From assembly GCA_964398775.1 (NCBI GenBank), contig CAYNND010000001.1:39528-103527 (forward strand): a stretch of DNA of 64,000 nucleotides, given 5' to 3'. The first letter of the stretch is position 1. Every line of letters begins with the position of its first letter. The notes under the pieces are model-generated. The model saw nothing but the letters and a program-made list of their open reading frames with translations, did no database searches and was not told the origin of the DNA. This DNA comes from an uncultured Candidatus Saccharibacteria bacterium. Its GTDB lineage: Bacteria; Patescibacteriota; Minisyncoccia; Phycocordibacterales; UBA2100. Of the stretch, positions 21,424 through 47,487 are shown in pieces. Made by a program: the position numbers and the translations under genes.

Positions 21424-22362
21424 CTAGAAACTTTCGCGACATGATGCACTATCACGCTCTGGTGTGTACATGATACCGAAATGACTCGTTGTTTCCTTGA
21501 CTGTAGAGTCATTCAGGAGTGTTGCAGAGTTTGTATGTGCGAAAAAGTACGGGTGCGGTGTTTCGTGCCCCGCTGCAAGTGTTGTCGCAAGCCACAGACA
21601 GGTCGGGCAGTCACTCTGCTGTGGATTCCTGAGCCGTTTAATATACTCAAGCCGTCGTGCACAGAGCGCGGTCTGTGTATCGAGGTCCATCATCTGCGCA
21701 TCTAGAAGCGGCAGGTAGTGCGAAAAGTCAGTACTCAGTACGAGCACAGTCCGTGTATCAAGCAGAAGAGACTCAAGAATACTCGCAAGTGCAATACGCT
21801 GTGCACTCAGTTTCGATTCATCGATAGAAACAACGACAGGAATGACACTTGCTTCAGGAACATAGTGGCGAATAAATGGGACAACGCTGTAAATGCCGTG
21901 CTCCTTTGAGAAGAGGTCGGACTGCGCAAACACACCTGACGTCAGTAGGCGTTGTACTGAAGGAGCGTTGATAGGAATATCACCAAAAAATGTTCCGAAC
22001 GAGCCATACGATGTACATGCAAATTCAGGACATCGCTTGTAGTGATCAGGTGAGAGCACTATGAAGCGTCGTGCCTGCGGTTGCGTTTTCGCGATACGCG
22101 CTATACCTTCCGCGATGACCTCATGTGCAACAAGGTGATGCGGGACCACTACGATGCGTCCCTTATGTGTATCAAGTGGACGACTAGAGCGTTCAAGAGA
22201 TGTGATGCCACTCACCACTGCTCCATCGAGCGCAGCATCATGAATAGTGTAGTAGGGGCTTGATGTGTAGCGCAGTACAAATAGACTGACAACTCCAAGC
22301 ACACACAAACCACCAATTATCGTGATATGAGTGGTTGATACCAGACGGGAAGTTTTGGCCAT
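21424..22362 (-). CDS. MEMO1/AmmeMemoRadiSam-B-like family protein with N-terminal membrane anchor
   Basis: VVVPHHLVAHE and LSTDFSHYL blocks resemble MEMO1-family motifs; N-terminal TM helix. Confidence 0.45.
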   Translation of the reverse strand: MAKTSRLVSTTHITIIGGLCVLGVVSLFVLRYTSSPYYTIHDAALDGAVVSGITSLERSSRPLDTHKGRIVVVPHHLVAHEVIAEGIARIAKTQPQARRFIVLSPDHYKRCPEFACTSYGSFGTFFGDIPINAPSVQRLLTSGVFAQSDLFSKEHGIYSVVPFIRHYVPEASVIPVVVSIDESKLSAQRIALASILESLLLDTRTVLVLSTDFSHYLPLLDAQMMDLDTQTALCARRLEYIKRLRNPQQSDCPTCLWLATTLAAGHETPHPYFFAHTNSATLLNDSTVKETTSHFGIMYTPERDSASCRESF

Positions 22363-33346: not shown

Positions 33347-33781
33347 CTACTTAGCTTTTTCTTGCATCTTTTTCAGGTCCTGCCATGAGTAGCGAACAAC
33401 ATTACCGGTAGCATTTACGGAGAAAACATGCATTAGTAGTTTTTTTGAAACTTGCCAAGGCAGTCGTCGCAAAGCAATTTTTGCTGATTTTTCAGGAAGT
33501 CCGATGCCATAATAATAGCGTGTAGTTCCTCCAGACTTCATGCGTGAAATAATTTGTCCAAGCGAATAAATAAATGATACTTCACTTGAACTTTTTCCCT
33601 TTCCTTGTCCTTTGCACTCAATCAAAAAGTAGCGTGAATAACGATTGTGCCGAACTTTTATGTCAACTCCCCTCTCTCTGAGTGCGCCAAACTGCAAATT
33701 AGTACCCCATTCATTTCTTGAGAGGAATTTTATGATTGATTTTTTTACAAATTCTTCAGGCATATGTATTCTAATTACCAC
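33347..33781 (-). CDS. Small PD-(D/E)xK nuclease-like protein translationally coupled to hsdR
   Basis: E...RGVDIKV...FLIECKG matches the E / D / (D/E)xK order of the restriction-endonuclease fold; overlaps the hsdR stop by 7 nt. Confidence 0.4.
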   Translation of the reverse strand: MVIRIHMPEEFVKKSIIKFLSRNEWGTNLQFGALRERGVDIKVRHNRYSRYFLIECKGQGKGKSSSEVSFIYSLGQIISRMKSGGTTRYYYGIGLPEKSAKIALRRLPWQVSKKLLMHVFSVNATGNVVRYSWQDLKKMQEKAK

Positions 33782-36582
33782 TCAAAAATGTCTACAATAT
33801 CAACAATTGCTCCCTTAATTCGGTCAATGATGCCCTGTCGCTTCAAGACGCTTGGTTGTTCGTTCTCAGGCAAGAGTGCGATAATGTCGTCCCCGAGCGG
33901 AGTACGTTGTGTGTAGATATACTCACCAATAAGCGTTTGGAATGATTCAAGGTCGATATGCTCATCTTCCGCAACCTTGCGGAGAGCATTTGAACGCTCA
34001 CTTTCCCAGAACTTTTCAAACACAGTTTCAACATCCTCGGAGCGTGCAATACTCGGCAAGCTTTCCTTTATGAATTTCTCAACAAGCTCTTTCTTCTTGC
34101 GGAGCTGGATATCACGGTCAAAGATTTTGAGAATGTCATCGGCTTTCTTTTGACGGAGTGAATCTGAAGTAACGTCTTTAAGTCCCACAATCAGCTTAAT
34201 GATGTAGTCGAAATTAACAATGTCAGTCGCTACTAGCTCCAGCTCGAAGTCGATTTGGTCTAGTACTGATTCTAGCTCCTTGCTATCTTTGTTCTTTCGC
34301 TCCTCATAAACATCAAGGTACTTGCTCTGGTAGTCGTAGAATTCTTGTTCGGTGATGCCGAGGTCAGCAAAATCAAACTCAGCGAATGTTTCAAGTGATG
34401 CCTTGATGCGGAGTAGGTCACGGAAGCTCTGTACGAATGATGCTTTCTCTTCCTCACTTTGTATGAGGTCTACATCACCAACGTTTGGCACTTCCTCTTT
34501 GAGTTCAGTCAGTTTGTCTTCAAACTCTACTTTCTGCATTGCGTAGGGTTTCTTGAACACTACTTCTTTCGCATTCTCGTCACCAAACAAAGCAAGCGCC
34601 TTGTCGGTGTTCTTTTTGAGGTTACGGAACGTAACAATGTTGCCGTGTGGCTTGTCGGAATTAAGTAGGCGGTTAGTGCGTGAGTACGCTTGAATCAAGC
34701 CGTGGTAGCGGAGATTCTTATCTACATAGAGTGTATTGAGGCGTGGGCTATCAAAACCAGTAAGGAACATATTTACTACTAACACCAAATCAACTTCCTT
34801 ATCTTTTATTCGTTTCTGCAAGTTTTTGTAGTAGTCGTAAAAAGTATCTGTAGAAAAGTTGGTACCAAATTGCTCGTTGTAGTCTTTAATGCATCGCTCC
34901 AAAAAGTCACGTGAATGCTCGTTCACAGGAGCGTCAGTCTCAGCCATCACATCGAAGTCGAGCATATCGGAACTCTCGTCCTCGTTGGCTTGATAGGTAA
35001 AAATAGTGGCGATGGTAAAGTCTTCGGGCTTCTTAGCTTTAAAGAGGTTGTAGTATTTCTTTAAGACTTCAATAGTTGGAGTAGCGAAGATGGCGTTAAA
35101 CTTTCCGTTCTTTGTCTTTCGCTTCCAGTCGTGAAGAACATAATCAGTAATCTTTTCCAAGCGGTCATTGGATTCTAAAATCTCTTTTGTGTTGATACCT
35201 TCAACTTCCATATCGGCAAAGATGTCCGCATCAAGCGTATCTTGCTCCTTTTGGGTGTACTTGCCGACATACTCCACCGCAAAGCCAAGTACGTTGTTAT
35301 CAGCTATCGCATTCGTGATGATGTACTTGTGTAGACACTCCTCAAACACATCAATCGTAGTTACTCCACCCACGTTGTTTTCCGCAAAGATAGGCGTACC
35401 CGTAAAGCCAAAAAGTTGAGCTTTGGTAAAGAAGTTTTTAATGCGTGCGTGCGTTTGTCCAAACTGACTGCGGTGACATTCATCAAAGATGATAATTATT
35501 TTCTCATTCGCTAACTCCTCGAATTGCTTTAGGTAGCCTTCACGTCCAATAGCAATGTCGAGCTTTTGAATAGTTGTCACAATGAGCTTGCGAGTAGGGT
35601 CTTTGAGTTGGTCTACGAGCGTCTTTGTGCGGTCAGTACCGTCTACTGAGCCAGCAGAAAACGAGTTGAATTCTTTTGTGGTTTGAATGTCCAAGTCTTT
35701 ACGGTCAACCACAAACAGCACTTTCTTTACCTCTGGGATATTAGAGAGTATCTGACTAGCTTTAAAAGAAGTGAGTGTCTTACCCGAACCAGTCGTGTGC
35801 CAAATGTACCCATTCTTATTTGATTCTTTTACTCGATTCACAATACGGCGTACTGCAAAGTATTGATATGGTCGAAGAATAAGCGGAATGCGAAGGGATT
35901 CAGCCAGTACGATATACTCGGCAATCATCTGCGATACTGCACACTTTTCAAGGAAAACAGATGCGAAGTCTTCAAGTCGAGTTATCTTTTGGTTGTTGTC
36001 GTCAGTCCAGTAGAAAGTCTGCTCAAAAGACTGTTTTGGATTGTTGGCAAAGTATTTAGTATTTACTCCATTTGAAATAACAAAAATCTGGATGTATTCA
36101 AAGAGACTGCCAGCGTATGAATGCTTATGGTATCGCTGGACTTGATTAAAGGCTTCTTTAAGCTCCATTCCTCGGCGCTTCAACTCTACTTGAGCAAGGG
36201 GCAATCCATTTACCAAGAGTGTCACGTCATAGCGATTTTTGTATGTACCGACTTGCGTGATTTGCTGCGCCACCTGGTACTCATTTTTACACCACTGTGT
36301 TGTGTTAAAAAAACGAACATAGAACGCGCTCTCGTCATCTCGCTTCAGTGCATAGCGATCACGAAGCGCCTTCGCTTTGTCGAACCGATCACCTTTGTTG
36401 AGATGGTTGAGAATCTGCGAAAACTCAGTGTCTGAAAAAGTAGTTTCGTTGAATTTCTGGAGCTGCGCACGGAGGTTTGCAACCATCGCCTCTGTGTCAG
36501 GTATAACAACAGCCTCAAATCCAAGCCCCTGTAGTTGCTTTATGAGCGCATTCTCGAGTTCTTGTTCTGATTGATGAGTCAT
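33775..36582 (-). CDS. hsdR: Type I restriction enzyme R subunit
   Basis: motif I HTTGSGKT, motif II FDECHRSQ, 935 aa, in operon with hsdM/hsdS. Confidence 0.9.
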   Translation of the reverse strand: MTHQSEQELENALIKQLQGLGFEAVVIPDTEAMVANLRAQLQKFNETTFSDTEFSQILNHLNKGDRFDKAKALRDRYALKRDDESAFYVRFFNTTQWCKNEYQVAQQITQVGTYKNRYDVTLLVNGLPLAQVELKRRGMELKEAFNQVQRYHKHSYAGSLFEYIQIFVISNGVNTKYFANNPKQSFEQTFYWTDDNNQKITRLEDFASVFLEKCAVSQMIAEYIVLAESLRIPLILRPYQYFAVRRIVNRVKESNKNGYIWHTTGSGKTLTSFKASQILSNIPEVKKVLFVVDRKDLDIQTTKEFNSFSAGSVDGTDRTKTLVDQLKDPTRKLIVTTIQKLDIAIGREGYLKQFEELANEKIIIIFDECHRSQFGQTHARIKNFFTKAQLFGFTGTPIFAENNVGGVTTIDVFEECLHKYIITNAIADNNVLGFAVEYVGKYTQKEQDTLDADIFADMEVEGINTKEILESNDRLEKITDYVLHDWKRKTKNGKFNAIFATPTIEVLKKYYNLFKAKKPEDFTIATIFTYQANEDESSDMLDFDVMAETDAPVNEHSRDFLERCIKDYNEQFGTNFSTDTFYDYYKNLQKRIKDKEVDLVLVVNMFLTGFDSPRLNTLYVDKNLRYHGLIQAYSRTNRLLNSDKPHGNIVTFRNLKKNTDKALALFGDENAKEVVFKKPYAMQKVEFEDKLTELKEEVPNVGDVDLIQSEEEKASFVQSFRDLLRIKASLETFAEFDFADLGITEQEFYDYQSKYLDVYEERKNKDSKELESVLDQIDFELELVATDIVNFDYIIKLIVGLKDVTSDSLRQKKADDILKIFDRDIQLRKKKELVEKFIKESLPSIARSEDVETVFEKFWESERSNALRKVAEDEHIDLESFQTLIGEYIYTQRTPLGDDIIALLPENEQPSVLKRQGIIDRIKGAIVDIVDIFEW

Positions 36583-36584
36583 AT

Positions 36585-37793
36585 CTATTTTTTATTGAGA
36601 GACTCAGGCACAAACCCATGCTCGATGAGAAGTTGTGTCAGTTCACGAAAGAGATAGTTTGCAAAGAAAGAAATTGTATAGATACGCGCTCCTTTTTGTA
36701 TCGGCTTAAGCATCTTCTTACCTACCAACTTTGCAATAATTCTTGATCGCTGCACAGAGCTCTCTTCTGAAAGCAGCTTACCGATATCATTCGCTTTTAT
36801 AGTCATACTCGGTGAGCTAGCCACAACATACTTTAGTAACGTATGTTCAACAGGCGTGATGTATTTATTCTCCAGGGAGCGAGCAAGCATAGGGAGCAAA
36901 ATAGTATCTGCAAGATATTTCCTGTCTAGCAACTTATCAATCTTTGCAATTTCTCTTGCAAGACCTTTGAGCACATAGAGGCACCATTCAAGCATTGCTT
37001 CCTCGGTCCCCGTATCAGCTTTCGCGAGCATATCATAGTAGACATTTCTATCATCACAAAAGATTGCAGTTGGATTGAGGATACGCCCAGATTTTACACT
37101 AAAACCTTGTTGTAATAGTTGCGCATAGGTGAGCATGCGCACAGTACGACCGTTTCCATTATCAAATGGATGAATTACAGAAAAACGATGGTGTGCAATG
37201 GCAATTACGAGCAGATGGAATTGAGTTGGGTATTTATCATTTATGAAACTAAATAATTCTTCGGATTCCGCAGCGATGAGCGTCGCGGGTACTGTTTTTA
37301 ATTGCGAATTTTTTACACTTACATGCTCTTCACGATACGAGCCAGCAGAGGCAGAGCCTTCACCTCCATCTTTTGGCAACGTTAGACCATTTACTATTAT
37401 CTTGTGTAGCTCAGAGATTATGACCCTTGTGATCGGTGTGCCGACTTTTACATTAGCTTCAAGGAAATCTATGGCATCTTCTACGTTCGCAATTTCTCTC
37501 ATGGATTCGTCTGAATCTGGCGATTTTCCTGCGATAACCTTTTCAGCATATTCGGAGATTGTCGTTCGATTGCCCTCTATTCGGTTTGATCCCAAACTTT
37601 CAAGTATTTGAAATATTTCTTTTACCTGAAAGAATACATGGGGAGGCACAGTTCCACTCAGTTTCTTTTCTCTCAATTTTTCTAACTCAACAATGACTGT
37701 GTTTAACTCACTGTCAAACGATGGTTTTGGTATTTTCGCAAGGTTTTTCTCAGTTGTCATAAGTATATTATCTTCAAAATCGAAGTATAACAT
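36585..37793 (-). CDS. Fic/DOC-family protein with N-terminal inhibitory helix motif, embedded between hsdS and hsdR
   Basis: HPFDNGNGRTVR active-site motif; SNRIEGN fits the (S/T)xxxE(G/N) inhibitory motif; C-terminal wHTH-like region. Confidence 0.8.
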   Translation of the reverse strand: MLYFDFEDNILMTTEKNLAKIPKPSFDSELNTVIVELEKLREKKLSGTVPPHVFFQVKEIFQILESLGSNRIEGNRTTISEYAEKVIAGKSPDSDESMREIANVEDAIDFLEANVKVGTPITRVIISELHKIIVNGLTLPKDGGEGSASAGSYREEHVSVKNSQLKTVPATLIAAESEELFSFINDKYPTQFHLLVIAIAHHRFSVIHPFDNGNGRTVRMLTYAQLLQQGFSVKSGRILNPTAIFCDDRNVYYDMLAKADTGTEEAMLEWCLYVLKGLAREIAKIDKLLDRKYLADTILLPMLARSLENKYITPVEHTLLKYVVASSPSMTIKANDIGKLLSEESSVQRSRIIAKLVGKKMLKPIQKGARIYTISFFANYLFRELTQLLIEHGFVPESLNKK

Positions 37794-37884
37794 TTAACAT
37801 CGGGTAAGCAAATATGGCTTTATATATGTGTTTTATGCATTTGTCTCAAAAACATTATTTAACATTTTGAGAAAAGTACATTTA

Positions 37885-39114
37885 TCACACAAACATTTTT
37901 TGTAGCAGTCCTTTTTTCCACATCTCCGCCGTCTTAACTTGTAGATCCTTATGCTCTATGAGGTAGTCAATTGACTGCAAGAACTCTCGAATTAACATTT
38001 GTTCTTCCACTGTTACTGGTACAGTTACGACAATCTCCTTAAAGTGTGTGTATTTTAGATTCCACGTATCTGATACGAGACCTTGTGAGTAACGGTAAAA
38101 ATCAAAAATCGTTCGAGGAAGTTTAAAAAAATAACCGAAGAAATCTGAATCGACATTCTTCGGGGTAACTACCGTATATGCAGGACTGACTATGCCTTCA
38201 TGTCTTGAAACTCCTGCTGCTCCTTGCCACATTCGCATGGTGTTGTAAGCGATATCTCCTACACGGACAATTTTATAATTCGATTTATCTTCGCTGGAAC
38301 TATCTTTTTTTACCGAGCTATCATATCGGGTCACTCCATTTTTAAGAGTTACTGAGAGCAGTTCATAATCACCGTCAGTCGCTCTTTCTGCTCTTTCTTT
38401 CAATAAATCTCCCAATTTGCAGCTTTTCCATGCAGGGAAATTTTTACCATTCTCATCCTTAAAACGTACTTCTCGCGAGAAAATTTTTTGCATCACTCCT
38501 CGTTTATATTCTTCGAGTTTGATCTTTTGAGCTTTGAGGTTTTCAATTAATTTATCAACGTCTTGCAAGAAAATTGATATTCTATTTTGCTCGTCACGAT
38601 TTGGATATGAGGTTAGAATTGAAGAGACTACACTCCACTCTGCTCTTGGCATCTTAGAACCTATAGTAATTTGACTCTGATATGCAAATCTATTTCCTTG
38701 AATGAAGTAGAAGAGAAATGCAGCCTCAACTGTTTTTGGTTTAATTACCCAAATTTCTGTTGTTGCAATACCGTCAAAGTCGGTCAGAATATACTTCCTC
38801 AGATTTGGACGAAGTTTTCCAAAAAGTATTTGATTTTTGTGGAATACATTTTTAATACTTTTTAGACTTTTCGAGTCAATCATATCTAGTAATCTGCCAG
38901 TATTTTTTTCAATATTCTCCAATTCGATGCATTTTTCGTATGTATTTGATATTTGAGGATTGTATTTTTCATTTGAAAGCATAGCGATTTTACCAAAGTC
39001 ATCGGCATTCCATTCATTTGTAAACTCTGGAAAACGCAATTCAGGAACATTCTTCTGTTGTGTAGAAGACTTTTTCATAGCTAAAATGGCATTTTGATTC
39101 CAAGTTCTTTGCAC
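37885..39114 (-). CDS. hsdS: Type I restriction-modification S subunit (two target-recognition domains)
   Basis: two TRD halves separated by conserved coiled-coil spacers (LKAQKIKLEEYKRGVMQKIFS; C-terminal KTAEMWKKGLLQKMF). Confidence 0.8.
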   Translation of the reverse strand: MQRTWNQNAILAMKKSSTQQKNVPELRFPEFTNEWNADDFGKIAMLSNEKYNPQISNTYEKCIELENIEKNTGRLLDMIDSKSLKSIKNVFHKNQILFGKLRPNLRKYILTDFDGIATTEIWVIKPKTVEAAFLFYFIQGNRFAYQSQITIGSKMPRAEWSVVSSILTSYPNRDEQNRISIFLQDVDKLIENLKAQKIKLEEYKRGVMQKIFSREVRFKDENGKNFPAWKSCKLGDLLKERAERATDGDYELLSVTLKNGVTRYDSSVKKDSSSEDKSNYKIVRVGDIAYNTMRMWQGAAGVSRHEGIVSPAYTVVTPKNVDSDFFGYFFKLPRTIFDFYRYSQGLVSDTWNLKYTHFKEIVVTVPVTVEEQMLIREFLQSIDYLIEHKDLQVKTAEMWKKGLLQKMFV

Positions 39115-40685
39115 GCCTCAGCAATTGCCTGTTCTAGTTTGGTCTCATTTGCCTTTAGTGCCTGTAACTCGCCCGCAACTGTGTCGAGATCAATCGGCTC
39201 CTCATTCTCAAAGGTGTCGACATAGCGAGGGATGTTGAGATTGAAGTCATTTTCCTTGACTTCTTCAAGGGAGGCGTTGTGTGCGTACTTTTCGACATCT
39301 GTACGCGCTTGGTAGGTTTTGAAAATCTTTTCGATATGCTCGCTGTCGAGATGGTTTTGATTCTTCCCTTTACGAAACTCTCGAGAGGCTTCTATGAAGA
39401 AAACGCCATCATCGTCTTTGCGGCATTTCTTAAAGATGAGGATGGCCGCGGGGATGGACGTACCGTAAAAGAGATTTGGCGGGAGGCCGATCACTGCATC
39501 GAGATAGTTTTGCCGCTCGATGATGTACTTACGGATATGCCCTTCTGCCCCACCACGAAAGAGCGCACCATGTGGAAGTACCACAGCCATCGTGCCGTTG
39601 TCAGCGAGGTGGTGCAGCATGTGTGTGACGAACGCATAGTCAGCAGCACCCTTAGGTGCAAGGCGACCGTACTGTGAAAATCGATCATCAGCAGTAAGTA
39701 CAGGATCTGTCTCACCCTTCCACTGTGCACCAAAAGGCGGGTTTGCTACAACTGCTTCAGCTTGGATATCGGGAAACTTATCGTCGGTCAGCGTGTCGCC
39801 ATGACCAATTGCAAAGTGAGAAAAATGTACGCCGTGGAGAATCATGTTCATGCGGGCGAGATTGTACGTTGTTGGGTTCCGCTCTTGTCCGTAGTAGTGC
39901 GCAACGCTTGCATAATCACGAATACGCAAGAGAAGCGAACCAGAACCGCACGTCGGGTCGTATACACTGCGAAGCTTTTTCTTTCCTTCGGTTACGATCA
40001 TCGCCATGAGGCGGGATACTTGCGAAGGAGTGTAAAACTCTCCTGCCTTCTTCCCTGCTCCCGCAGCAAATTCAGAGATGAGGTACTCGTACGCGTCACC
40101 AAGGATATCGCTTTTTGAGTCTTCCAGTTTAAAGTCTATTTTGCTGAGATGTGTAAGGATTTCTATGATGCGTTCATTTTTCACTTTCTCCGATGAACCG
40201 AGACGTACTGACGTAAGATCGACGTCAGTAAAGAGACCTTTGAAGTCGTCTTCACTCTCAGTACCCGAGGAGGTTTGCTGTATTGCGTTTAAAACTGCTT
40301 TCAATTCTTCGAGGATGAACGTATCATCCCCGCGCTCACCTTTCCCTTTTTGCACAAGATAAGAAAAAAGCTGATGAGGTTTTAGAAAGAATCCGAGCTT
40401 TTCTAGAGACGCATGCTTTATCGCATCAATATACTCTTTGTCGTTTTTCTTTTTTTCATCAAGGGCAGTAAAGTTAATTTTGTCAGATTTTAAAAGACTC
40501 TCTGCGTATGCTTCTTGTTTCTCTGAGAGATACTTGTAGAAAATAAAACCGAGGATGTAGTTTTTGTACTCATCCGCATTCATACTGCTACGAAGCGTGT
40601 CTGCTACCGCCCACAATTGCTTTTCGAGAAGTCTTTTTTGGTCCTCAGTCATTTGAAGTTTAATTCTATCATAGTTACGGTTCAA
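39081..40685 (-). CDS. hsdM: Type I restriction-modification M subunit (N6-adenine methyltransferase)
   Basis: NPPFG catalytic motif (VVANPPFGAQW), SAM-binding DPTCGSGSLL, N-terminal HsdM helical domain. Confidence 0.9.
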   Translation of the reverse strand: MNRNYDRIKLQMTEDQKRLLEKQLWAVADTLRSSMNADEYKNYILGFIFYKYLSEKQEAYAESLLKSDKINFTALDEKKKNDKEYIDAIKHASLEKLGFFLKPHQLFSYLVQKGKGERGDDTFILEELKAVLNAIQQTSSGTESEDDFKGLFTDVDLTSVRLGSSEKVKNERIIEILTHLSKIDFKLEDSKSDILGDAYEYLISEFAAGAGKKAGEFYTPSQVSRLMAMIVTEGKKKLRSVYDPTCGSGSLLLRIRDYASVAHYYGQERNPTTYNLARMNMILHGVHFSHFAIGHGDTLTDDKFPDIQAEAVVANPPFGAQWKGETDPVLTADDRFSQYGRLAPKGAADYAFVTHMLHHLADNGTMAVVLPHGALFRGGAEGHIRKYIIERQNYLDAVIGLPPNLFYGTSIPAAILIFKKCRKDDDGVFFIEASREFRKGKNQNHLDSEHIEKIFKTYQARTDVEKYAHNASLEEVKENDFNLNIPRYVDTFENEEPIDLDTVAGELQALKANETKLEQAIAEACKELGIKMPF

Positions 40686-40942: not shown

Positions 40943-41284
40943 ATGAACAAATTTATCGCCCTATATTGCATGCCCCACACTGGCCTCGCCGACTGGATGA
41001 AAAAGCCTCAGGAAGAACGCCAAGCAATGGAAGATGCCCTCAAGGCAAAGTGGAACACCTGGGCACAAGCTCAAGGCACAGCCCTACACCTCACCGCTGC
41101 TGCAGGTAAGAACACTCGCGTCACTTCCTCTGGCGCTGCAGAGATGAGTAATGACCTCATGATGTACTCTATCGTTGAGGCTGCGGACAAGGAAGCAGCT
41201 ACAAAGATGTTTGTCGGTCACCCGCACTTGGAAATCCCTGGTGCATGGATAGACGTGATGCCAGCAAACAAGATGGGAATGTAA
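40943..41284 (+). CDS. Hypothetical small protein (possible alpha+beta barrel fold)
   Basis: 113-aa ORF; no confident family. Confidence 0.35.
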   Translation: MNKFIALYCMPHTGLADWMKKPQEERQAMEDALKAKWNTWAQAQGTALHLTAAAGKNTRVTSSGAAEMSNDLMMYSIVEAADKEAATKMFVGHPHLEIPGAWIDVMPANKMGM

Positions 41285-41290
41285 TCGCAA

Positions 41291-41800
41291 CTATCTCAAT
41301 AGTTCCCACTTGTTCAAATAGTCTTCTGCTATAGGCATGTTAATTGAATATTTTTCTCCACGCTTTCCGAGCATAAACGACCGGAGTGATGTATTCATCC
41401 TTCGTGTATCAGTGCGCAACCAGTGGAGATGTGATTCTTTTGCAAATTGAGCAACGATTTGTGAAGGAATTATATAAAAGTTGAACGCTTCTGTTGTTTG
41501 GGCAATACTGACGAAACAGTAGAAAAGTAATTTGTCTGTTGCCTCTTCGGTTTTCTCTCCAATCTTCCAGTGCGCTTCTATGTATCCGAACTCTTTTGAT
41601 ATATAAGGTCTATTGTCGAAATGCGTCTTCACCTCAAGTCGATTCATTGTTTTCGTTTCTGGATGTGAAAGGAGTATGTCGACACCTTTTGTGTTACCTA
41701 AAGTCATATTTGCATCAAATCCGCGAAGTGCGAGCTGTGAAAGTACTGCGAACTCCCCCGCAAGAGATATTTGATTCTTTGATAGATATTTATGATTCAT
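41291..41800 (-). CDS. Hjc-like / PD-(D/E)xK nuclease-fold protein
   Basis: AGEFAVLSQLALRGFDAN...GVDILLS...RLEVKT matches the GxxxE...GxxV.R...DIIA...IEVK order of archaeal Holliday-junction resolvase-like nucleases. Confidence 0.4.
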   Translation of the reverse strand: MNHKYLSKNQISLAGEFAVLSQLALRGFDANMTLGNTKGVDILLSHPETKTMNRLEVKTHFDNRPYISKEFGYIEAHWKIGEKTEEATDKLLFYCFVSIAQTTEAFNFYIIPSQIVAQFAKESHLHWLRTDTRRMNTSLRSFMLGKRGEKYSINMPIAEDYLNKWELLR

Positions 41801-41834
41801 TTCTCAATCATGTCACGAGATACAATCGAGTCAA

Positions 41835-42140
41835 TCAACTTGCAATGAGCTCCTGCTTCTTCCCTTTACTCAGCAACTTGATAGCTGCTTCACGTTTGAG
41901 CGCTTCTGAGCGGGTGAGCCCGCACTCGCTGTACGCGATGCGACGCACACCACGAGAGCGTGTGTAGCGGCCACCCTTACCTGCTTGGTGCGTCTTGAGG
42001 CGTGCATCAAGGTCATTGGTCATACCGGTGTAGAGCGAGTCATCGTCGCACTCCAAGATATAGACACAAAACGATGTGTCTGGTGCGGGTTCTGTTTGAG
42101 GTCGTTGTTTCACTCCTTGAGTATACCACCCCCTCCCGTA
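41835..42140 (-). CDS. GIY-YIG nuclease superfamily protein (YhbQ/UPF0213-like); start at internal Met
   Basis: FCVYILECDDDSLYTGMTNDLDARLKTH GIY-YIG block with downstream Arg/Glu. Confidence 0.7.
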   Translation of the reverse strand, partial: YGRGWYTQGVKQRPQTEPAPDTSFCVYILECDDDSLYTGMTNDLDARLKTHQAGKGGRYTRSRGVRRIAYSECGLTRSEALKREAAIKLLSKGKKQELIAS

Positions 42141-42160
42141 CATGCTGTTTTTTGCAAGCG

Positions 42161-43501
42161 CTACGGAAGCTGCTTCCCCTTCCATCGCTCGTAGTCAAAC
42201 GCATATGTTTTCATAAATGCTGCCTTCAATGCATCGACTGCTTTCTGCGTCTTAGCGTCACTTACTTTCACTGTGATATCGTCGATGATTTTTACGGTAC
42301 ATTTTGCTTTTCCTTTCTTTGCGAGGCATGGCATGACCCCAGCGGCAACTGCCTTTTGGTACTCAATGAGCCCATGCGTGTAGTACATGAGGATAAGCGG
42401 CTCCGTATGCGCTGCAAGTTCTGCATCAGAGGCTGCATAGATAGCACGGTGAATGTTGTACTGCTCAGAAATCTCCTTGTTCATCTTGATACCCACATCG
42501 TTTACCGCACGCTCGTATGCCATAAGTGGTGTGACGATGTTTTGTATCTGTGTTGAGACTGCCTGCAGACCACCAGCGCTGGTGAAATCAATCTTTTGGA
42601 ATCCATGCTTGATAGTGTACTGACTGCGCACATGTGCGAGCTGCTCACGTGCAACTATCACTTTTGCATCAAGTGGAATCGCAGTACTGACACGGAGGAA
42701 GAATGTAAGCGGCGCATACACAGGACTTGCGAGAAGTGCTGTCGTACGCTCCCAGTTTGCAAGGAGTGCATCTTTCTCTTTGATGCTTGTGTCGAGCTGC
42801 GCGACGTATTCGTTCCCGTAGAGGTTCTGCAGGTTCGGCTGCTTCAAGAGAAACTGACTTTTGTTTTTATGTGCGATGATGACTTCGCGTGCCTTTGCTC
42901 TGATGTGTGTGAGGTGTCGCAGGTATGTATATGACTGCTCCGGTGTCGAAAAAAAGAACTGACCATTGGCAAAGGCAAACGCAGTACTCTGCACACTGAG
43001 TGCGCGGTAGGTGTCACGTGACTGAGCGATGAGTGCGAGCACTGCTTCGTGGTACTTCGTATCATACGGAGCAACGAGTGCATCATTGTACTCAGGACGT
43101 ACCTCAACGATTGCCCCCCAGAGGCGCCTTCCCGCTGCAGTTGATTGCATGCGCTTCACGATATCCTTTCGCTGGTTGTAGAGCTGTGTGATTTGTTTAC
43201 TGTGTGCATCGAACTCTGCAGCGAGCTTTGCAAAATCATTTGAAACTTTTACTTCTCGCGTACCGATGTCGAATGCTGCTGCGAGCGCCTTCTCGGTCTC
43301 AAGCTCGTACTGCTGCTTTGCTATGCGGTACGCACGCATATCCTTCTCAATAGGTAAAAACACTCCAGGGGCTGCTGTAGTCATGTCGAGCATCGCTTGC
43401 GCAGCGGCAAAGACTTCATGCCGAGGGACCGGCTCTTCTGCATATGCAGCAAGTGGGACAATAAGTACACAGCACAGTGCGAGCACACGGAGGTGGTTCA
43501 T
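42161..43501 (-). CDS. Hypothetical secreted alpha-helical protein
   Basis: signal peptide MNHLRVLALCCVLIVPLAAYA; 446 aa; no motif recognised. Confidence 0.45.
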   Translation of the reverse strand: MNHLRVLALCCVLIVPLAAYAEEPVPRHEVFAAAQAMLDMTTAAPGVFLPIEKDMRAYRIAKQQYELETEKALAAAFDIGTREVKVSNDFAKLAAEFDAHSKQITQLYNQRKDIVKRMQSTAAGRRLWGAIVEVRPEYNDALVAPYDTKYHEAVLALIAQSRDTYRALSVQSTAFAFANGQFFFSTPEQSYTYLRHLTHIRAKAREVIIAHKNKSQFLLKQPNLQNLYGNEYVAQLDTSIKEKDALLANWERTTALLASPVYAPLTFFLRVSTAIPLDAKVIVAREQLAHVRSQYTIKHGFQKIDFTSAGGLQAVSTQIQNIVTPLMAYERAVNDVGIKMNKEISEQYNIHRAIYAASDAELAAHTEPLILMYYTHGLIEYQKAVAAGVMPCLAKKGKAKCTVKIIDDITVKVSDAKTQKAVDALKAAFMKTYAFDYERWKGKQLP

Positions 43502-44834: not shown

Positions 44835-45026
44835 CTAGTCTTTCTTACAGAGCAGAACTGATGCGAGGTATATACCGACCGCAAGCCCAGCAAGTCCAGT
44901 AATAAGCGCATATGGAGCAATGAGCTCATGAAAATGTGCGCCGAGAGCGAGCCCGACTAAGAGCACCGAGGCCTTGAGCATCGCAGCCTGTTGCCACGAT
45001 AGTGTGTAATCTCTAAAAAGGTTCAT
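44835..45026 (-). CDS. Small two-TM membrane protein
   Basis: 63-aa ORF with two hydrophobic helices; weak. Confidence 0.25.
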   Translation of the reverse strand: MNLFRDYTLSWQQAAMLKASVLLVGLALGAHFHELIAPYALITGLAGLAVGIYLASVLLCKKD

Positions 45027-45096
45027 ACTATAAGTGTAGCATGGTGCAGAGCGTATGAGTTTCTGGTATAGTATCGCCGACTCACGTGAGTCATAA

Positions 45097-45325
45097 GGCA
45101 GAACGTCTAATGGCAGGACAATGAAATAGAAACTGCTTTCTATTTCATCTGGTCGTTAACGAATTTGCTTTGTTTGTGTATAGCGCTGCCAAATCGTCGG
45201 GTAGGAGCAGGGTCGTAAACCAGCTCGCTCGTCAGTAATGGTAATGCGAGAGTAATTGCTAGATTGTCGGGTGGGAGCAAGGTCATAAACCAGCTTACTT
45301 GTCAGAATGGTAATGTGAGAGTTAT
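45097..45325 (+). repeat. Three degenerate tandem units each beginning with a tRNA-Gln 5' (acceptor/D-arm)-like segment; unit 1 carries a perfect 12-bp hairpin
   Basis: ggcagaacgtctaatggcaggac / gccaaatcgtcgggtaggagca / gctagattgtcgggtgggagca vs tRNA gccagatcgtctaatggtaggac; units 2 and 3 (~66 bp) ~80% identical over full length. Confidence 0.6.
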
Positions 45326-45396
45326 TGCCAGATCGTCTAATGGTAGGACAGAGGCCTTTGAAGCCTTTAATCTTGGTTCGATTCCAAGTCTGGCAG
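45326..45396 (+). tRNA. tRNA-Gln (anticodon UUG)
   Basis: manual cloverleaf: acceptor tgccaga/tctggca, D-arm gtct-aatggta-ggac, anticodon arm gaggc-CTTTGAA-gcctt, T-arm cttgg-ttcgatt-ccaag, discriminator g; CCA not encoded. Confidence 0.75.
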
Positions 45397-45443
45397 CAAA
45401 ATAGGAGAAAAATGAGTCAGCATTTTTCGACGTAATTTTGATA

Positions 45444-45462
45444 GCCAGACTTGGAATCGAAC
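45444..45462 (-). repeat. Inverted copy of the tRNA-Gln 3' end (T-arm/acceptor)
   Basis: gccagacttggaatcgaac is the reverse complement of tRNA positions ~45374-45394. Confidence 0.6.
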
Positions 45463-45554
45463 GACGGAGGCACGAAGCCGTTTTGTATTCAAAACGTTGC
45501 CGAGTCGCGGCGCCAGTGTACTTATGAGCGCAGCGAATTAGTAAAAACGGGCGC

Positions 45555-45576
45555 GATTCCAAGTCTGGCAGCAAAA
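45555..45576 (+). repeat. Perfect 22-bp direct repeat of the tRNA-Gln 3' end plus 5 downstream nt (att-core-like)
   Basis: gattccaagtctggcagcaaaa identical to 45380-45401. Confidence 0.7.
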
Positions 45577-45608
45577 AAATCGCCTGCACCTCCTGAGAGA
45601 GTGCAGGC
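45572..45608 (-). terminator. Rho-independent terminator after gene 45614-45931
   Basis: gcctgcac-loop-gtgcaggc with minus-strand tail gatttttttgc. Confidence 0.6.
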
Positions 45609-45613
45609 TCGAT

Positions 45614-45931
45614 TTAGTCCTCGATCTGCTGTGCAGAAATTCCGAGGACTATGGCGATAATTATGGCAGACGCCTGCACCGCGCATGCAATGACCCACCC
45701 GAGAGCAAAAATCAGGAATGTGAGGTCTTCGCAGTCACGTGCGCGCGACATCTGTCTGCACTCGCCAAACTTGTCGAGACTTTGTGATATGCCGTCGGCC
45801 ATCAGCCCCGTGCCTGTGTAGAGCCCGTGCCACCAGAGGTAGCACATGAGCGCTGCAAGCGCGAGACATGGGACGATACGGACAACCACAGGGAGCCGCA
45901 ACACCAACCGTGCGAATTCATCCACCTTCAA
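45614..45931 (-). CDS. Hypothetical small membrane protein
   Basis: 105 aa, three hydrophobic helices. Confidence 0.4.
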   Translation of the reverse strand: MKVDEFARLVLRLPVVVRIVPCLALAALMCYLWWHGLYTGTGLMADGISQSLDKFGECRQMSRARDCEDLTFLIFALGWVIACAVQASAIIIAIVLGISAQQIED

Positions 45932-46045
45932 CCTGCCTTTCTATTGGAGCCTAGTGATGAGTGAAATCGTACAAATATATTATACCATAAATATGGTTTG
46001 AGTCAATAATGACTAGCGCCTGCATTCCCTTGCTATACTTGCCCC

Positions 46046-46440: not shown

Positions 46441-47487
46441 ATGATTCGAGAACGAGGGCGTCGTGAAATAACTGGGAGGCGAGAGCTCATTCAGAAAGAC
46501 CCGCAGGTGCAGGAACTCATCCATGTGTTGAGCGAGTCAGCGCGCGGTAAAGTCATCAATGCAATACCGAATCGAGATATTCCGGAAGACATACGAGATG
46601 CTGTGCGTACCTCTGTCCGTGCAGTGCGTGCATACATGCACCACTTGAAGATACCGGTCCGCTTATCTGAGAAAGATATCCTGAAGCGCTGCCGATTTGT
46701 CGCAGATTCTGTAGCAACGTTTCGCGACCCAGGCGGCCATACATTTGAAATTAAACCACTTCCTGCAGCGCTCTACGATACATTTACAGAACTCTTTGTC
46801 ATACATACACCGAACACCCACCGTACTGATCGTTTTAACCTCATCCGCATACTTATGCATGAAATCATGCATAGTATTTCCCATAACGAAACACGTATAG
46901 TACGACACCCCACAGGCTCTATCAGAATGATACACACATCAGGGTACAAAAATGCACGCAGCGAACATGGTGAGCGGAGAGAAGTCATCGAAGAGCGCTT
47001 CATTGGCTTTAATGAAGCGATCACCGACCTCATGGCGCTGCGAGCGATATCGCACGCACAAGCTCTTCCTGCAGGATACGTGCAACTCTCCCACACCAAT
47101 GATGGATACACTGATGAAAAGAATCTCGTTCACATCATCTGCGTGACGATTGGTGGGAGAATCGGAAAGTCTACCGAAGAAATGGAGCGTATGTTCTTCA
47201 AAGGATACATCGATGGTTCGCGTATGAATCTCCGCATCATCGCTGAGCACTTTGGTCCACAAGCGCTCAGTGTCCTCTCAAAGCTCGGGCAGCACCGAGA
47301 TGCTCCGTATCATGGCAGCGTCTTGAACAGTAAAATCACTTCTTGGTTTACCCATGCACTGGACGCGCAGCGCGATGAGCTCTATCACGAAATAATGAGC
47401 TACCCAACACCGCAACAACTTGCTCGTGAGGAGCTAGAAAAGAAGGCGTACTATGATGCACCACGCCCTGATAGTAGCGAGGAGTAA
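46441..47487 (+). CDS. Hypothetical zincin-like protein with HExxH motif
   Basis: ILMHEIMHSISHNE followed ~40 aa later by GFNEAITD (candidate third ligand/Glu helix); family not recognisable. Confidence 0.45.
   Translation: MIRERGRREITGRRELIQKDPQVQELIHVLSESARGKVINAIPNRDIPEDIRDAVRTSVRAVRAYMHHLKIPVRLSEKDILKRCRFVADSVATFRDPGGHTFEIKPLPAALYDTFTELFVIHTPNTHRTDRFNLIRILMHEIMHSISHNETRIVRHPTGSIRMIHTSGYKNARSEHGERREVIEERFIGFNEAITDLMALRAISHAQALPAGYVQLSHTNDGYTDEKNLVHIICVTIGGRIGKSTEEMERMFFKGYIDGSRMNLRIIAEHFGPQALSVLSKLGQHRDAPYHGSVLNSKITSWFTHALDAQRDELYHEIMSYPTPQQLAREELEKKAYYDAPRPDSSEE

Follow-up and report, generated by a model that had tools for sequence, protein, structure and literature searches.

Partial copies of both ends of a tRNA-Gln(UUG) gene in a Patescibacteria-like DNA segment: an upstream tandem duplication and a 175-bp insertion at the 3' end, probably of unrelated origin

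The 64-kb stretch of DNA analysed here (the window, meaning the whole stretch whose first lines stand above) contains an intact tRNA-Gln(UUG) gene that is surrounded by fragments of its own sequence. Probably, two unrelated processes copied the two ends of this one functional gene, a duplication on the upstream side and an insertion on the downstream side. Behind the gene, a comparison with an empty site in a related genome reveals 175 bp of added DNA bounded by a repeat of the tRNA 3' end. In front of it, units that combine the first part of the tRNA with a copy of its promoter box are arranged head to tail, and their number differs among close relatives. tRNA genes are classic landing sites for mobile DNA. 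To our knowledge, little is known about mobile DNA at the tRNA genes of small-genome, uncultured Patescibacteria. The locus provides a clean pair of occupied and empty sites for a very small insert that forms hairpins, has no gene and lies at a tRNA 3' end. Its upstream array presents a single-copy tRNA gene that evolves by repeated partial duplication of its promoter and 5' end. If such inserts are mobile in their own right, they would point to an undescribed recombination system. If neither part is functional, the locus would still be a useful marker of strain-level structural variation.

The gene at the centre of the locus is the following:

45326-45397, plus strand: intact tRNA-Gln(UUG) gene, CCA not encoded (ARAGORN call Gln(ttg); Rfam family RF00005)

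An initial annotation, made from the letters of the sequence, had proposed this tRNA together with the repeats around it, and the tRNA is real. Rfam RF00005 matched 45326-45396 over the full length of its model (1-71) with 64.8 bits against a threshold of 29; the cloverleaf of 45326-45397 scores above the gathering threshold and carries the anticodon. It is the single tRNA gene in the window that is backed by both ARAGORN and Rfam, and it is 100% identical to the tRNA-Gln of a related locus, L060. All of the repeats listed in that annotation are present as well, namely, three upstream units, a 12-bp hairpin, an inverted 19-mer and a direct repeat of the 3' end. The 19-mer GTTCGATTCCAAGTCTGGC occurs mainly in the tRNA-Gln of metagenome-assembled genomes of Patescibacteria (the candidate phyla radiation, CPR), including Saccharibacteria, Paceibacteria and Minisyncoccia, and the closest named relative of the locus is L001, "Patescibacteria group bacterium H51-bin007_1". 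Judging from the tRNA and from the similarity of the locus, the window appears to be a chromosomal segment of a Patescibacteria-like bacterium.

The downstream side of the gene consists of these parts:

45402-45576, plus strand: 175-bp insertion, defined against the empty site in L074 (equivalently 45379-45553, with 23 nt duplicated)
45408-45427, plus strand: terminator-like hairpin AAAAATG-AGTCAG-CATTTTT at the tRNA-proximal end of the insert, read from the sequence
45444-45480, plus strand: inverted 19-nt copy of the tRNA 3' end (45444-45462) with the conserved arm GACGGAGGCACGAAGCCG
45444-45569, strand not assigned: 126-nt three-way-junction element closed by a perfect 16-bp stem, from fold predictions
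45554-45576, plus strand: distal 23-nt direct copy of the tRNA 3' end, on the native flank
45582-45608, minus strand: intrinsic terminator of the convergent 105-aa gene, GCCTGCAC...GTGCAGGC followed by T7 on the minus strand

The segment 45379-45401 is repeated perfectly at 45554-45576, with a start-to-start spacing of 175 nt. The repeat had been described at this distance and as perfect, both of which hold, with a length of 22 nt; its length is 23 nt. The decisive comparison is that with L074, a related locus that encodes a homologue of the downstream 105-aa protein (92% identity). There, the 3' half of the tRNA runs straight into the terminator and the 105-aa gene, and the site is unoccupied; in window orientation, it reads ...AAGCCTTTAATCTTGGTTCGATTCCAAGTCTGGCAGC-A8-TCGCCTGCACCTCCTGAGAGAGTGCAGGC... 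(also given as ...CTTGGTTCGATTCCAAGTCTGGCAGC-A8-TCGCCTGCACC...). The pairwise alignment of the window and L074 contains one gap of 175 nt, and the flanks are approximately 93% identical. This single gap reveals an insertion of 175 bp in the window: a 23-nt stretch of the tRNA 3' segment is duplicated at its boundaries, and an otherwise collinear relative has none of the DNA enclosed. The earlier suspicion that the direct repeat marks a real insertion at the tRNA was therefore justified by L074. The terminator at 45582-45608 belongs to the native flank outside the insert, and L074 keeps it directly after the tRNA. On this evidence, the distal fragment would be the original end of the gene, and the present 3' end of the tRNA would have arrived with the insert.

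The insert contains no open reading frame (ORF) of note, and its 156-nt interior (45398-45553) has no second copy in the window, apart from the inverted 19-mer. This inverted copy (45444-45462) is a perfect match to 45376-45394, and the arm beside it is 18 nt long. In the predicted fold of the 126-nt element, the inverted copy pairs with the distal direct copy to form the stem, and the approximately 90 nt between them fold into two hairpins. The fold z-scores are -5.7 for RNA of the plus strand, -6.1 for RNA of the minus strand and -6.5 for single-stranded DNA. Other origins were considered for the inverted fragment and rejected. It is not a convergent second tRNA remnant or a hybrid tRNA made by inversion, as the adjoining sequence is not tRNA-like; a retroelement primer-binding site was dismissed because the complementarity ends before the discriminator and CCA; and elements of the IS200/IS605 type do not make a 23-nt duplication.

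Similar inserts were found at other tRNA-Gln loci. The survey covered approximately 40 loci of Patescibacteria, with a stored sequence of approximately 1-8 kb per locus in total. Three of the approximately 40 loci carry such an insert, with start-to-start lengths of 175 nt in the window, 177 nt in L035 and 142 nt in L039, and no larger repeat-bounded element at tRNA-Gln was found in the stored sequence. Past its distal copy, the L039 insert is flanked by sequence homologous to that found immediately behind the tRNA in L003, which makes L003 its unoccupied site and the two loci a second empty-site pair. An encoded CCA is retained on the distal copy but not on the tRNA-proximal one in L035 as well as in L039, which would be expected of a distal copy that represents the original end of the gene. 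The order of parts is common to the three inserts: the core, an A/T-rich terminator hairpin, an inverted T-loop motif (9-19 nt), two hairpins and the core again. The three-way-junction topology of the window recurs in L035 and L039, with stems of only 5-9 bp. Moreover, L035 and L039 share a 22-nt module (20/22 identical) that exceeds all 500 shuffles, and a 21-nt hairpin is shared by the window and L035 (18/21, with one compensatory pair), its score of 27 standing against a null of 15.6 +/- 2.2 and being reached in 0 of 500 shuffles. A 35-nt block of the window insert, comprising the inverted core and the arm, is also found in L061 (34/35), 1.67 kb downstream of tRNA-Gln and behind an A/T-rich 481-aa gene; L061 is without a distal direct copy. 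By eye, the C-terminal region of the 481-aa product resembles a PD-(D/E)xK nuclease motif, a resemblance that no profile search confirmed.

Two further observations concern these loci. At L039 5551-5650, a gap of 100 N has identical 55-nt sequences on both sides, and what looks like a third copy of the tRNA 3' fragment at this place is an artefact of scaffolding. In L010, L036 and L014, a sequence resembling a tRNA 3' half (GTAGGTTCGATCCCTACTCGGGGAGCA) lies approximately 45-60 nt after tRNA-Gln, with no recognisable 5' half.

The upstream side of the gene is built differently. Its parts, from the distal end towards the tRNA, are as follows:

45064-45072, plus strand: distal promoter-like extended -10 box TGGTATAGT, heading the leader-tRNA unit and conserved in relatives
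45079-45092, plus strand: 14-nt palindrome GACTCACGTGAGTC just after the distal promoter, from direct reading of the sequence
45097-45186, plus strand: unit U0, with a tRNA 5' fragment, a 12-bp hairpin and a T/G-rich linker ending in TGTGTATAGCGC
45187-45256, plus strand: unit U1, a copy of tRNA positions 1-31 with a mutated D-loop, and a tail with the box TGGTAATGC (45239-45247)
45257-45325, plus strand: unit U2, built as U1, with the tail box TGGTAATGT (45308-45316)

U1 (70 nt) and U2 (69 nt) stand head to tail and are 82% identical. Both open with the first 12 nt of the tRNA, with 11/12 and 10/12 matches, respectively, and the units run colinear with tRNA positions 1-31, ungapped and with no net change in length. 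The main difference lies in the D-loop, where TAATGGTAGGAC of the tRNA is replaced by GGGTGGGAGC. The spacing of the boxes is exact: TGGTAATGC ends 9 nt before U2, and TGGTAATGT ends 9 nt before position +1 of the tRNA. U0 is an older third unit. Its fragment at 45099-45120 matches tRNA positions 4-25 in 20 of 22 places (91%), and a perfect 12-bp hairpin (45121-45132 / 45137-45148) occupies the position of the anticodon arm. The palindrome at 45079-45092 is likely the 5' stem-loop of the leader transcript; L060, L063, L013 and L001 have a hairpin of another sequence at the corresponding place. The distal box is without a -35 element, and for this reason the consensus promoter scan did not list 45064-45072.

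Chance does not explain these repeats, as their counts lie far above the shuffled expectation. The 16-mer GATTCCAAGTCTGGCA, allowing at most 3 mismatches, has four matches against 0.44 expected, three of which are at this locus with 0-1 mismatch, and the core of the U units occurs twice against 0.00 expected. Tandem Repeats Finder reported no array at its thresholds, which is to be expected with only two copies at 82% identity. The units nevertheless behave like those of a minisatellite, being arranged head to tail (periods of 70 and 69 nt) and varying in number and composition among relatives.

The relatives show how the array may have arisen. In the Saccharibacteria loci L003, L008 and L039, the layout is simple, consisting of TTG...-TG(A/C)TATAGT, 9 nt and the tRNA. 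In the clade of the window, the conserved box, TTTCTG(G/C/T)TATAGT (L060, L062, L063, L013/L061, L001 and L075), lies 65-250 nt upstream of the tRNA, with a short hairpin and variable units in between. The content of the array differs from locus to locus: U0, U1 and U2 in the window; two units, UA and UB, without U0 in L075; U0 only in L062; one unit in L013; two units in L060; at least two identical units in L058; three units of 33-38 nt in L063; and none in L001. L075 is a near-identical strain, with a 63-aa protein 97% identical to that of the window and identical upstream sequence, and its UB matches U2 in 66 of 69 positions. In the tail of its first unit, an intact TGATATAGT stands 11 nt before UB. 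The turnover of the array among close relatives is fast. In L060 and L058, one repeat unit equals the core together with the linker found ahead of the tRNA, in line with what tandem duplication predicts. A clean deletion of U1 and U2 through the 12-nt repeats TGCCA(A/G)ATCGTC at the start of U1 and the start of the tRNA would yield the form seen in L062, in which the tRNA directly follows U0. Together, the promoter box at the 9-nt spacing and the turnover of units in near-identical strains indicate partial tandem duplication and not integration; the initial annotation had taken the 5' fragments, too, for probable scars of insertion and excision, an interpretation that is not supported.

The fragments themselves are not further tRNA genes, in agreement with what had been supposed. 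Neither default ARAGORN nor Rfam at E<=10 detected a second tRNA in 45000-45700, and U0, U1, U2 and the inverted fragment gave no tRNA gene or pseudogene in the same scans; extra tRNA, transfer-messenger RNA (tmRNA) or intron-containing tRNA genes within the fragments were rejected on these grounds. A minus-strand 157-nt "tRNA-Gly" with a 79-nt intron appeared with relaxed ARAGORN settings only (introns allowed, -ps80) and was treated as spurious. Besides tRNA, Rfam had no matches in the window or in 11 related loci, with the glutamine riboswitch, T-box and other leaders included. Several other identities of the upstream units were tried and rejected. A minus-strand mini-ORF, MTLLPP(D/A)(N/D), runs across the U cores (window 45120-45290; L063, L013 and L058) and was judged non-coding: its start varies between ATG, GTG and TTG, a TAG interrupts it in Ub of L060, its length is 16-47 aa and there is no ribosome-binding site. 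Repeats of a type III toxin-antitoxin system (ToxI-like) were dismissed because the array runs into a tRNA, not a protein gene, and no toxin family is found nearby. As a sigma-70 promoter, the U core would read TTGTCG-N16-TATAAT, which fits L063 only, and the start would fall inside the tRNA. Neither a G-quadruplex nor a pairing with the tRNA 3' half had support.

The favoured account of the locus can be put as follows. The ancestral layout would have been a promoter, TGNTATAGT, followed by 9 nt and the tRNA. In this clade, the segment from the promoter to approximately tRNA position 31, at the start of the anticodon loop, would have been duplicated in tandem, and unequal crossing-over or replication slippage between direct repeats of 12-30 nt would then have added or removed units. 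The outcome would be dead 5' fragments, each followed by a promoter copy in a greater or lesser state of decay, between the best-conserved distal promoter and the intact gene. The chain may be transcribed as a 5' leader of approximately 245 nt that RNase P would remove, and the proximal promoter-like boxes may fire too. On the other side, recombination in the stretch between the T-loop and the 3' end, which classically serves as the att core for integrases that target tRNA genes, would have brought in 175 bp of DNA. The gene's own 3' end would thereby have been displaced 175 bp downstream, and the insert would have supplied an identical new 3' end and the terminator-like hairpin. The insert, which encodes nothing and carries an inverted core copy able to pair with the displaced core, would be one of a few related elements without genes, 142-177 bp in size, whose further members lie at tRNA-Gln in other Patescibacteria. 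The sequence comparisons show the insertion, the duplication, the family resemblance of the inserts, the turnover of the array between strains and the promoter copies within the units; the recombinase, the form in which the DNA arrived, transcription and processing are inferred. In its mechanism, the upstream array is an ordinary tandem duplication, if an unusual one, and one of its segments is strangely well conserved. Downstream, a well-known event appears in a small new variant. Known processes explain most of the locus.

A number of points weigh against this account. The comparison loci are all metagenome contigs, and most of them are short. Pfam scans of the large and several smaller ORFs between approximately 26 and 60 kb, in which a few stretches such as 32.6-33.8 kb were left unscanned, found no recombinase domain; this agrees with the earlier statement that no integrase remains, and the insert, at 175 bp and non-coding, holds no recombinase gene itself. 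A circular or junction form of the insert would read ...AAAAACGGGCG-CGATTCCAAGTCTGGCAGCAAAA-TAGGAGAAAAATG..., and such a form would mark an excisable element. No attP joining the insert ends across the core was found in IMG/VR, the INPHARED phages or the PLSDB plasmids, and when viral contigs, phages and plasmids were searched for attP or for sequences related to the flanks, the only matches were chance ones or the tRNA itself. The inverted core copy is unexplained by ordinary double-stranded attP x attB recombination, and a circle of 142-177 bp would be an awkward substrate for an integrase. On the upstream side, the conservation of the unit core is unexpected for neutral debris, so that the array may have a function outside it.

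This last point leads to the reading that the array is a selected functional element, which could coexist with an origin by duplication and which we regard as a serious but doubtful candidate. In the pre-tRNA leader, the array could imitate the 5' half of tRNA-Gln, or it could be a DNA site to which a protein binds; its role might lie in binding a protein that recognises tRNA-Gln, in controlling processing or transcription, or in the release of a small RNA. The core, GTCGGGTGGGAGCA(A/G)GGTCA, occurs only upstream of tRNA-Gln, and its 24 nt in U2 are identical to those of units u2 and u3 of L063 (24/24), whereas coding DNA is approximately 70% identical between the two loci and the rest of the leader cannot be aligned. 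The stretch of promoter and U0 is 94% identical to L062 against 75% in the adjacent gene, and the sole change of L062 in the U0 hairpin, G-C to G-U, retains the RNA pair. However, L062 and L001 are without the core, which is therefore dispensable, and the length of units and tails varies freely (33-71 nt). No shared pairing partner of the core appeared in minimum free energy (MFE) folds of seven leaders; a GAGC/GCUY helix with a tail hairpin is confined to units of 67-71 nt and is not found in L060 or L063, and a conserved RNA structure of the core was rejected. There is also no Rfam match. The conservation is due either to selection acting on the core and U0 or to an exchange of the tRNA module between lineages, and such horizontal exchange could inflate the apparent conservation.

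The remaining explanations concern the downstream insert or the locus as a whole. The initial annotation regarded all of the 5' and 3' fragments as scars of repeated integrase-mediated insertion and excision of larger elements. The sharp boundaries of the 3' direct repeat inside the T-loop, like those of att cores, the varying cargo 3' of tRNA-Gln in relatives and the recurrence of the 35-nt insert block in L061 past the 481-aa gene speak for it. Nevertheless, it is improbable, since precise excision leaves no duplicated fragment and the downstream structure is one small insert that is still in place; furthermore, the 5' units hold promoter copies at the canonical 9-nt spacing and stand head to tail with the pre-tRNA linker, which is a signature of tandem duplication, and no integrase is nearby among the scanned ORFs. 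Where tRNA-targeting elements known to us duplicate part of the gene, it is the 3' rather than the 5' portion. An unlikely, though less improbable, proposal by analogy holds that the inserts are minimal members of an undescribed family of non-autonomous cassettes at the tRNA-Gln core; these would integrate as folded single-stranded hairpins in which the inverted core and the core rebuild a duplex site, L061 would be a gene-carrying and partly eroded member (with the nuclease-like 481-aa gene), and the U core would separately be a functional mimic of the tRNA-Gln 5' half. That the 126-nt palindrome is a miniature inverted-repeat transposable element (MITE), or an independent small-RNA or tRNA-like gene, and not an insertion of the att type, deserves very little credence. 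In favour of this, the palindrome ends in perfect inverted repeats of 16 bp and its fold is highly stable, and relaxed ARAGORN settings give the low-scoring, intron-containing tRNA-like gene on its minus strand. On the other hand, the inverted repeats are themselves copies of the tRNA end, the insert defined by L074 is 175 bp long with 23-nt direct repeats and not a 126-nt palindrome, no short target-site duplication lies beside the palindrome, no second or dispersed copy exists in the 64 kb or the fetched loci, no Rfam family matches, and L035 and L039 have only short stems in place of the long one. An assembly artefact of mis-joined or collapsed repeats is very improbable. Repeats of this kind disturb short-read assemblies, the L058 contig ends inside its array and the 100-N gap of L039 is flanked by duplicated sequence; yet independent assemblies reproduce the pieces, such as U2 in L075, the promoter-U0 stretch in L062, the distal flank in L074 and the complete tRNA in L060.

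The preferred reading, insertion behind the gene and tandem duplication before it, can be set beside known systems. The downstream part resembles the attL/attR duplication of tRNA 3' ends by tyrosine-integrase elements such as prophages, genomic islands and integrative and conjugative elements (ICEs): the direct repeat is perfect and runs from inside the T-loop past the 3' end, the incoming copy keeps the gene intact and a relative has the empty site. It differs from these systems in that the insert is only 175 bp long, with no gene and no integrase found, and, unlike a classical attP, it carries an inverted core copy. Cis-mobilizable elements (CIMEs), described in Streptococcus, are att-flanked remnants without recombination genes. 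Like them, the insert is att-flanked, has no integrase of its own and could be moved in trans; unlike them, it is not kilobase-sized or derived from an identifiable ICE or integrative mobilizable element (IME), as no parent element or cognate integrase was found, and mini-inserts occur in three lineages. The succession of target core, payload, inverted core, loop of approximately 90 nt and core is like that of folded single-strand att sites (integron attC and attP(+) of CTX-phi), and the 126-nt hairpin is within the size range of attC. In contrast to an integron cassette, no IntI was found, and the GTTRRRY and RYYYAAC boxes of attC are absent on reading the sequence; in contrast to attC and CTX-phi, it is a tRNA gene that is targeted, the payload measures 46 nt, and the two related inserts do not share the long stem. 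The resemblance to a folded single-strand att site is an analogy only.

The upstream part has counterparts of another kind. Its serial promoter-like boxes, with a leader presumably removed by RNase P, are reminiscent of stable-RNA operons (P1/P2 of rrn; RNAs derived from the external transcribed spacers, ETS, of tRNA operons). Unlike in rrn P1/P2, every copy of the promoter is accompanied by a non-functional duplicate of the gene's first 31 nt, and the copy number depends on the strain. The units are also comparable to tRNA pseudogenes and tRNA-derived repeats, being derived from a tRNA and non-functional as tRNA, because conserved D-loop residues are changed. Unlike tRNA pseudogenes, they hold only positions 1-31, always together with promoter sequence, and they are found at this locus only and are not dispersed.

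The surroundings of the tRNA vary among relatives, and the locus can partly be considered a rearrangement hotspot. The view of the initial annotation that it is an integration hotspot holds in so far as the content 3' of tRNA-Gln varies and the insertion is real; it does not extend to the upstream units, which integration did not make. L013 and L061 have a near-identical stretch of DUF2200, U unit and tRNA and diverge immediately 3' of the tRNA, where csoR-copA follows in L013 and the 481-aa gene in L061. The csoR-copA genes also follow tRNA-Gln in the unrelated L027, with 71.5% identity over 499 nt. This csoR-copA module (L013 733-1875; L027 1-1124) has a conserved leader of approximately 110 nt, TTGAGATAGGTTCAGACTCCGA..., and continues beyond the contigs; possibly, it is a mobile island. 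The module of promoter, leader and tRNA is divergent from a 446-aa gene in the window, L062, L063 and L061, and it is co-directional with that gene in L058 and L060, where the tRNA is immediately followed by a 447-aa gene. The switch in orientation indicates an inversion, for which the conserved 121-aa and 446-aa genes serve as reference; its breakpoints fall at the tRNA 3' end and in the bidirectional (divergent) promoter region.

The flanking genes had been regarded as possible cargo, and most of them turned out to be syntenic neighbours; they are not enclosed as cargo by the repeats described here. The 121-aa and 348-aa genes, DUF2127, TSP_3 and DUF2339 are syntenic in L060 and/or L061, and the 105-aa gene is native to the locus, as its presence in L074 shows; the 421-aa and 63-aa genes occur in only some of the relatives. 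Many ORFs near tRNA-Gln have no Pfam family, and the remaining genes of the window have ordinary cellular functions. Look-ups of the exact 421-, 105- and 63-aa proteins of the window returned no record, and homologues were reached by protein search; for the 105-aa protein, this was one homologue among 5.8 billion proteins. The 105-aa gene (45614-45931, minus strand), which encodes a predicted membrane protein, has its own terminator and a near-consensus promoter at 45979-46006 (minus strand), TTGACT-16-TATAAT with an upstream TG. Its 348-aa neighbour (46441-47487, plus strand) belongs to no Pfam or NCBIfam family and contains an HEIMH (HExxH) motif, which suggests a metalloprotease.

Some observations were made farther from the gene. 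The 100-nt "tRNA-Pyl(cta)" that ARAGORN called at 22125-22224 (minus strand) is probably false; it lies inside long ORFs, and Rfam has no tRNA there at the gathering threshold. A type I restriction-modification operon at 33775-40685 (minus strand) encodes HsdR, a Fic/DOC protein, HsdS and HsdM, and its GC content is 0.40-0.43 against approximately 0.48 elsewhere. At the equivalent place past the 446-aa gene, relatives carry other defence genes (GmrSD, D12/N4-N6 methylases and an EcoRI-type methylase), and 33775-40685 is a variable defence island approximately 5 kb from the tRNA. Between the two, a 553-bp segment (41284-41836) with a 169-aa ORF that has no Pfam family is absent from the 95-98% identical L059, which has 28 nt instead, and a GIY-YIG gene (41835-42185) adjoins this segment.

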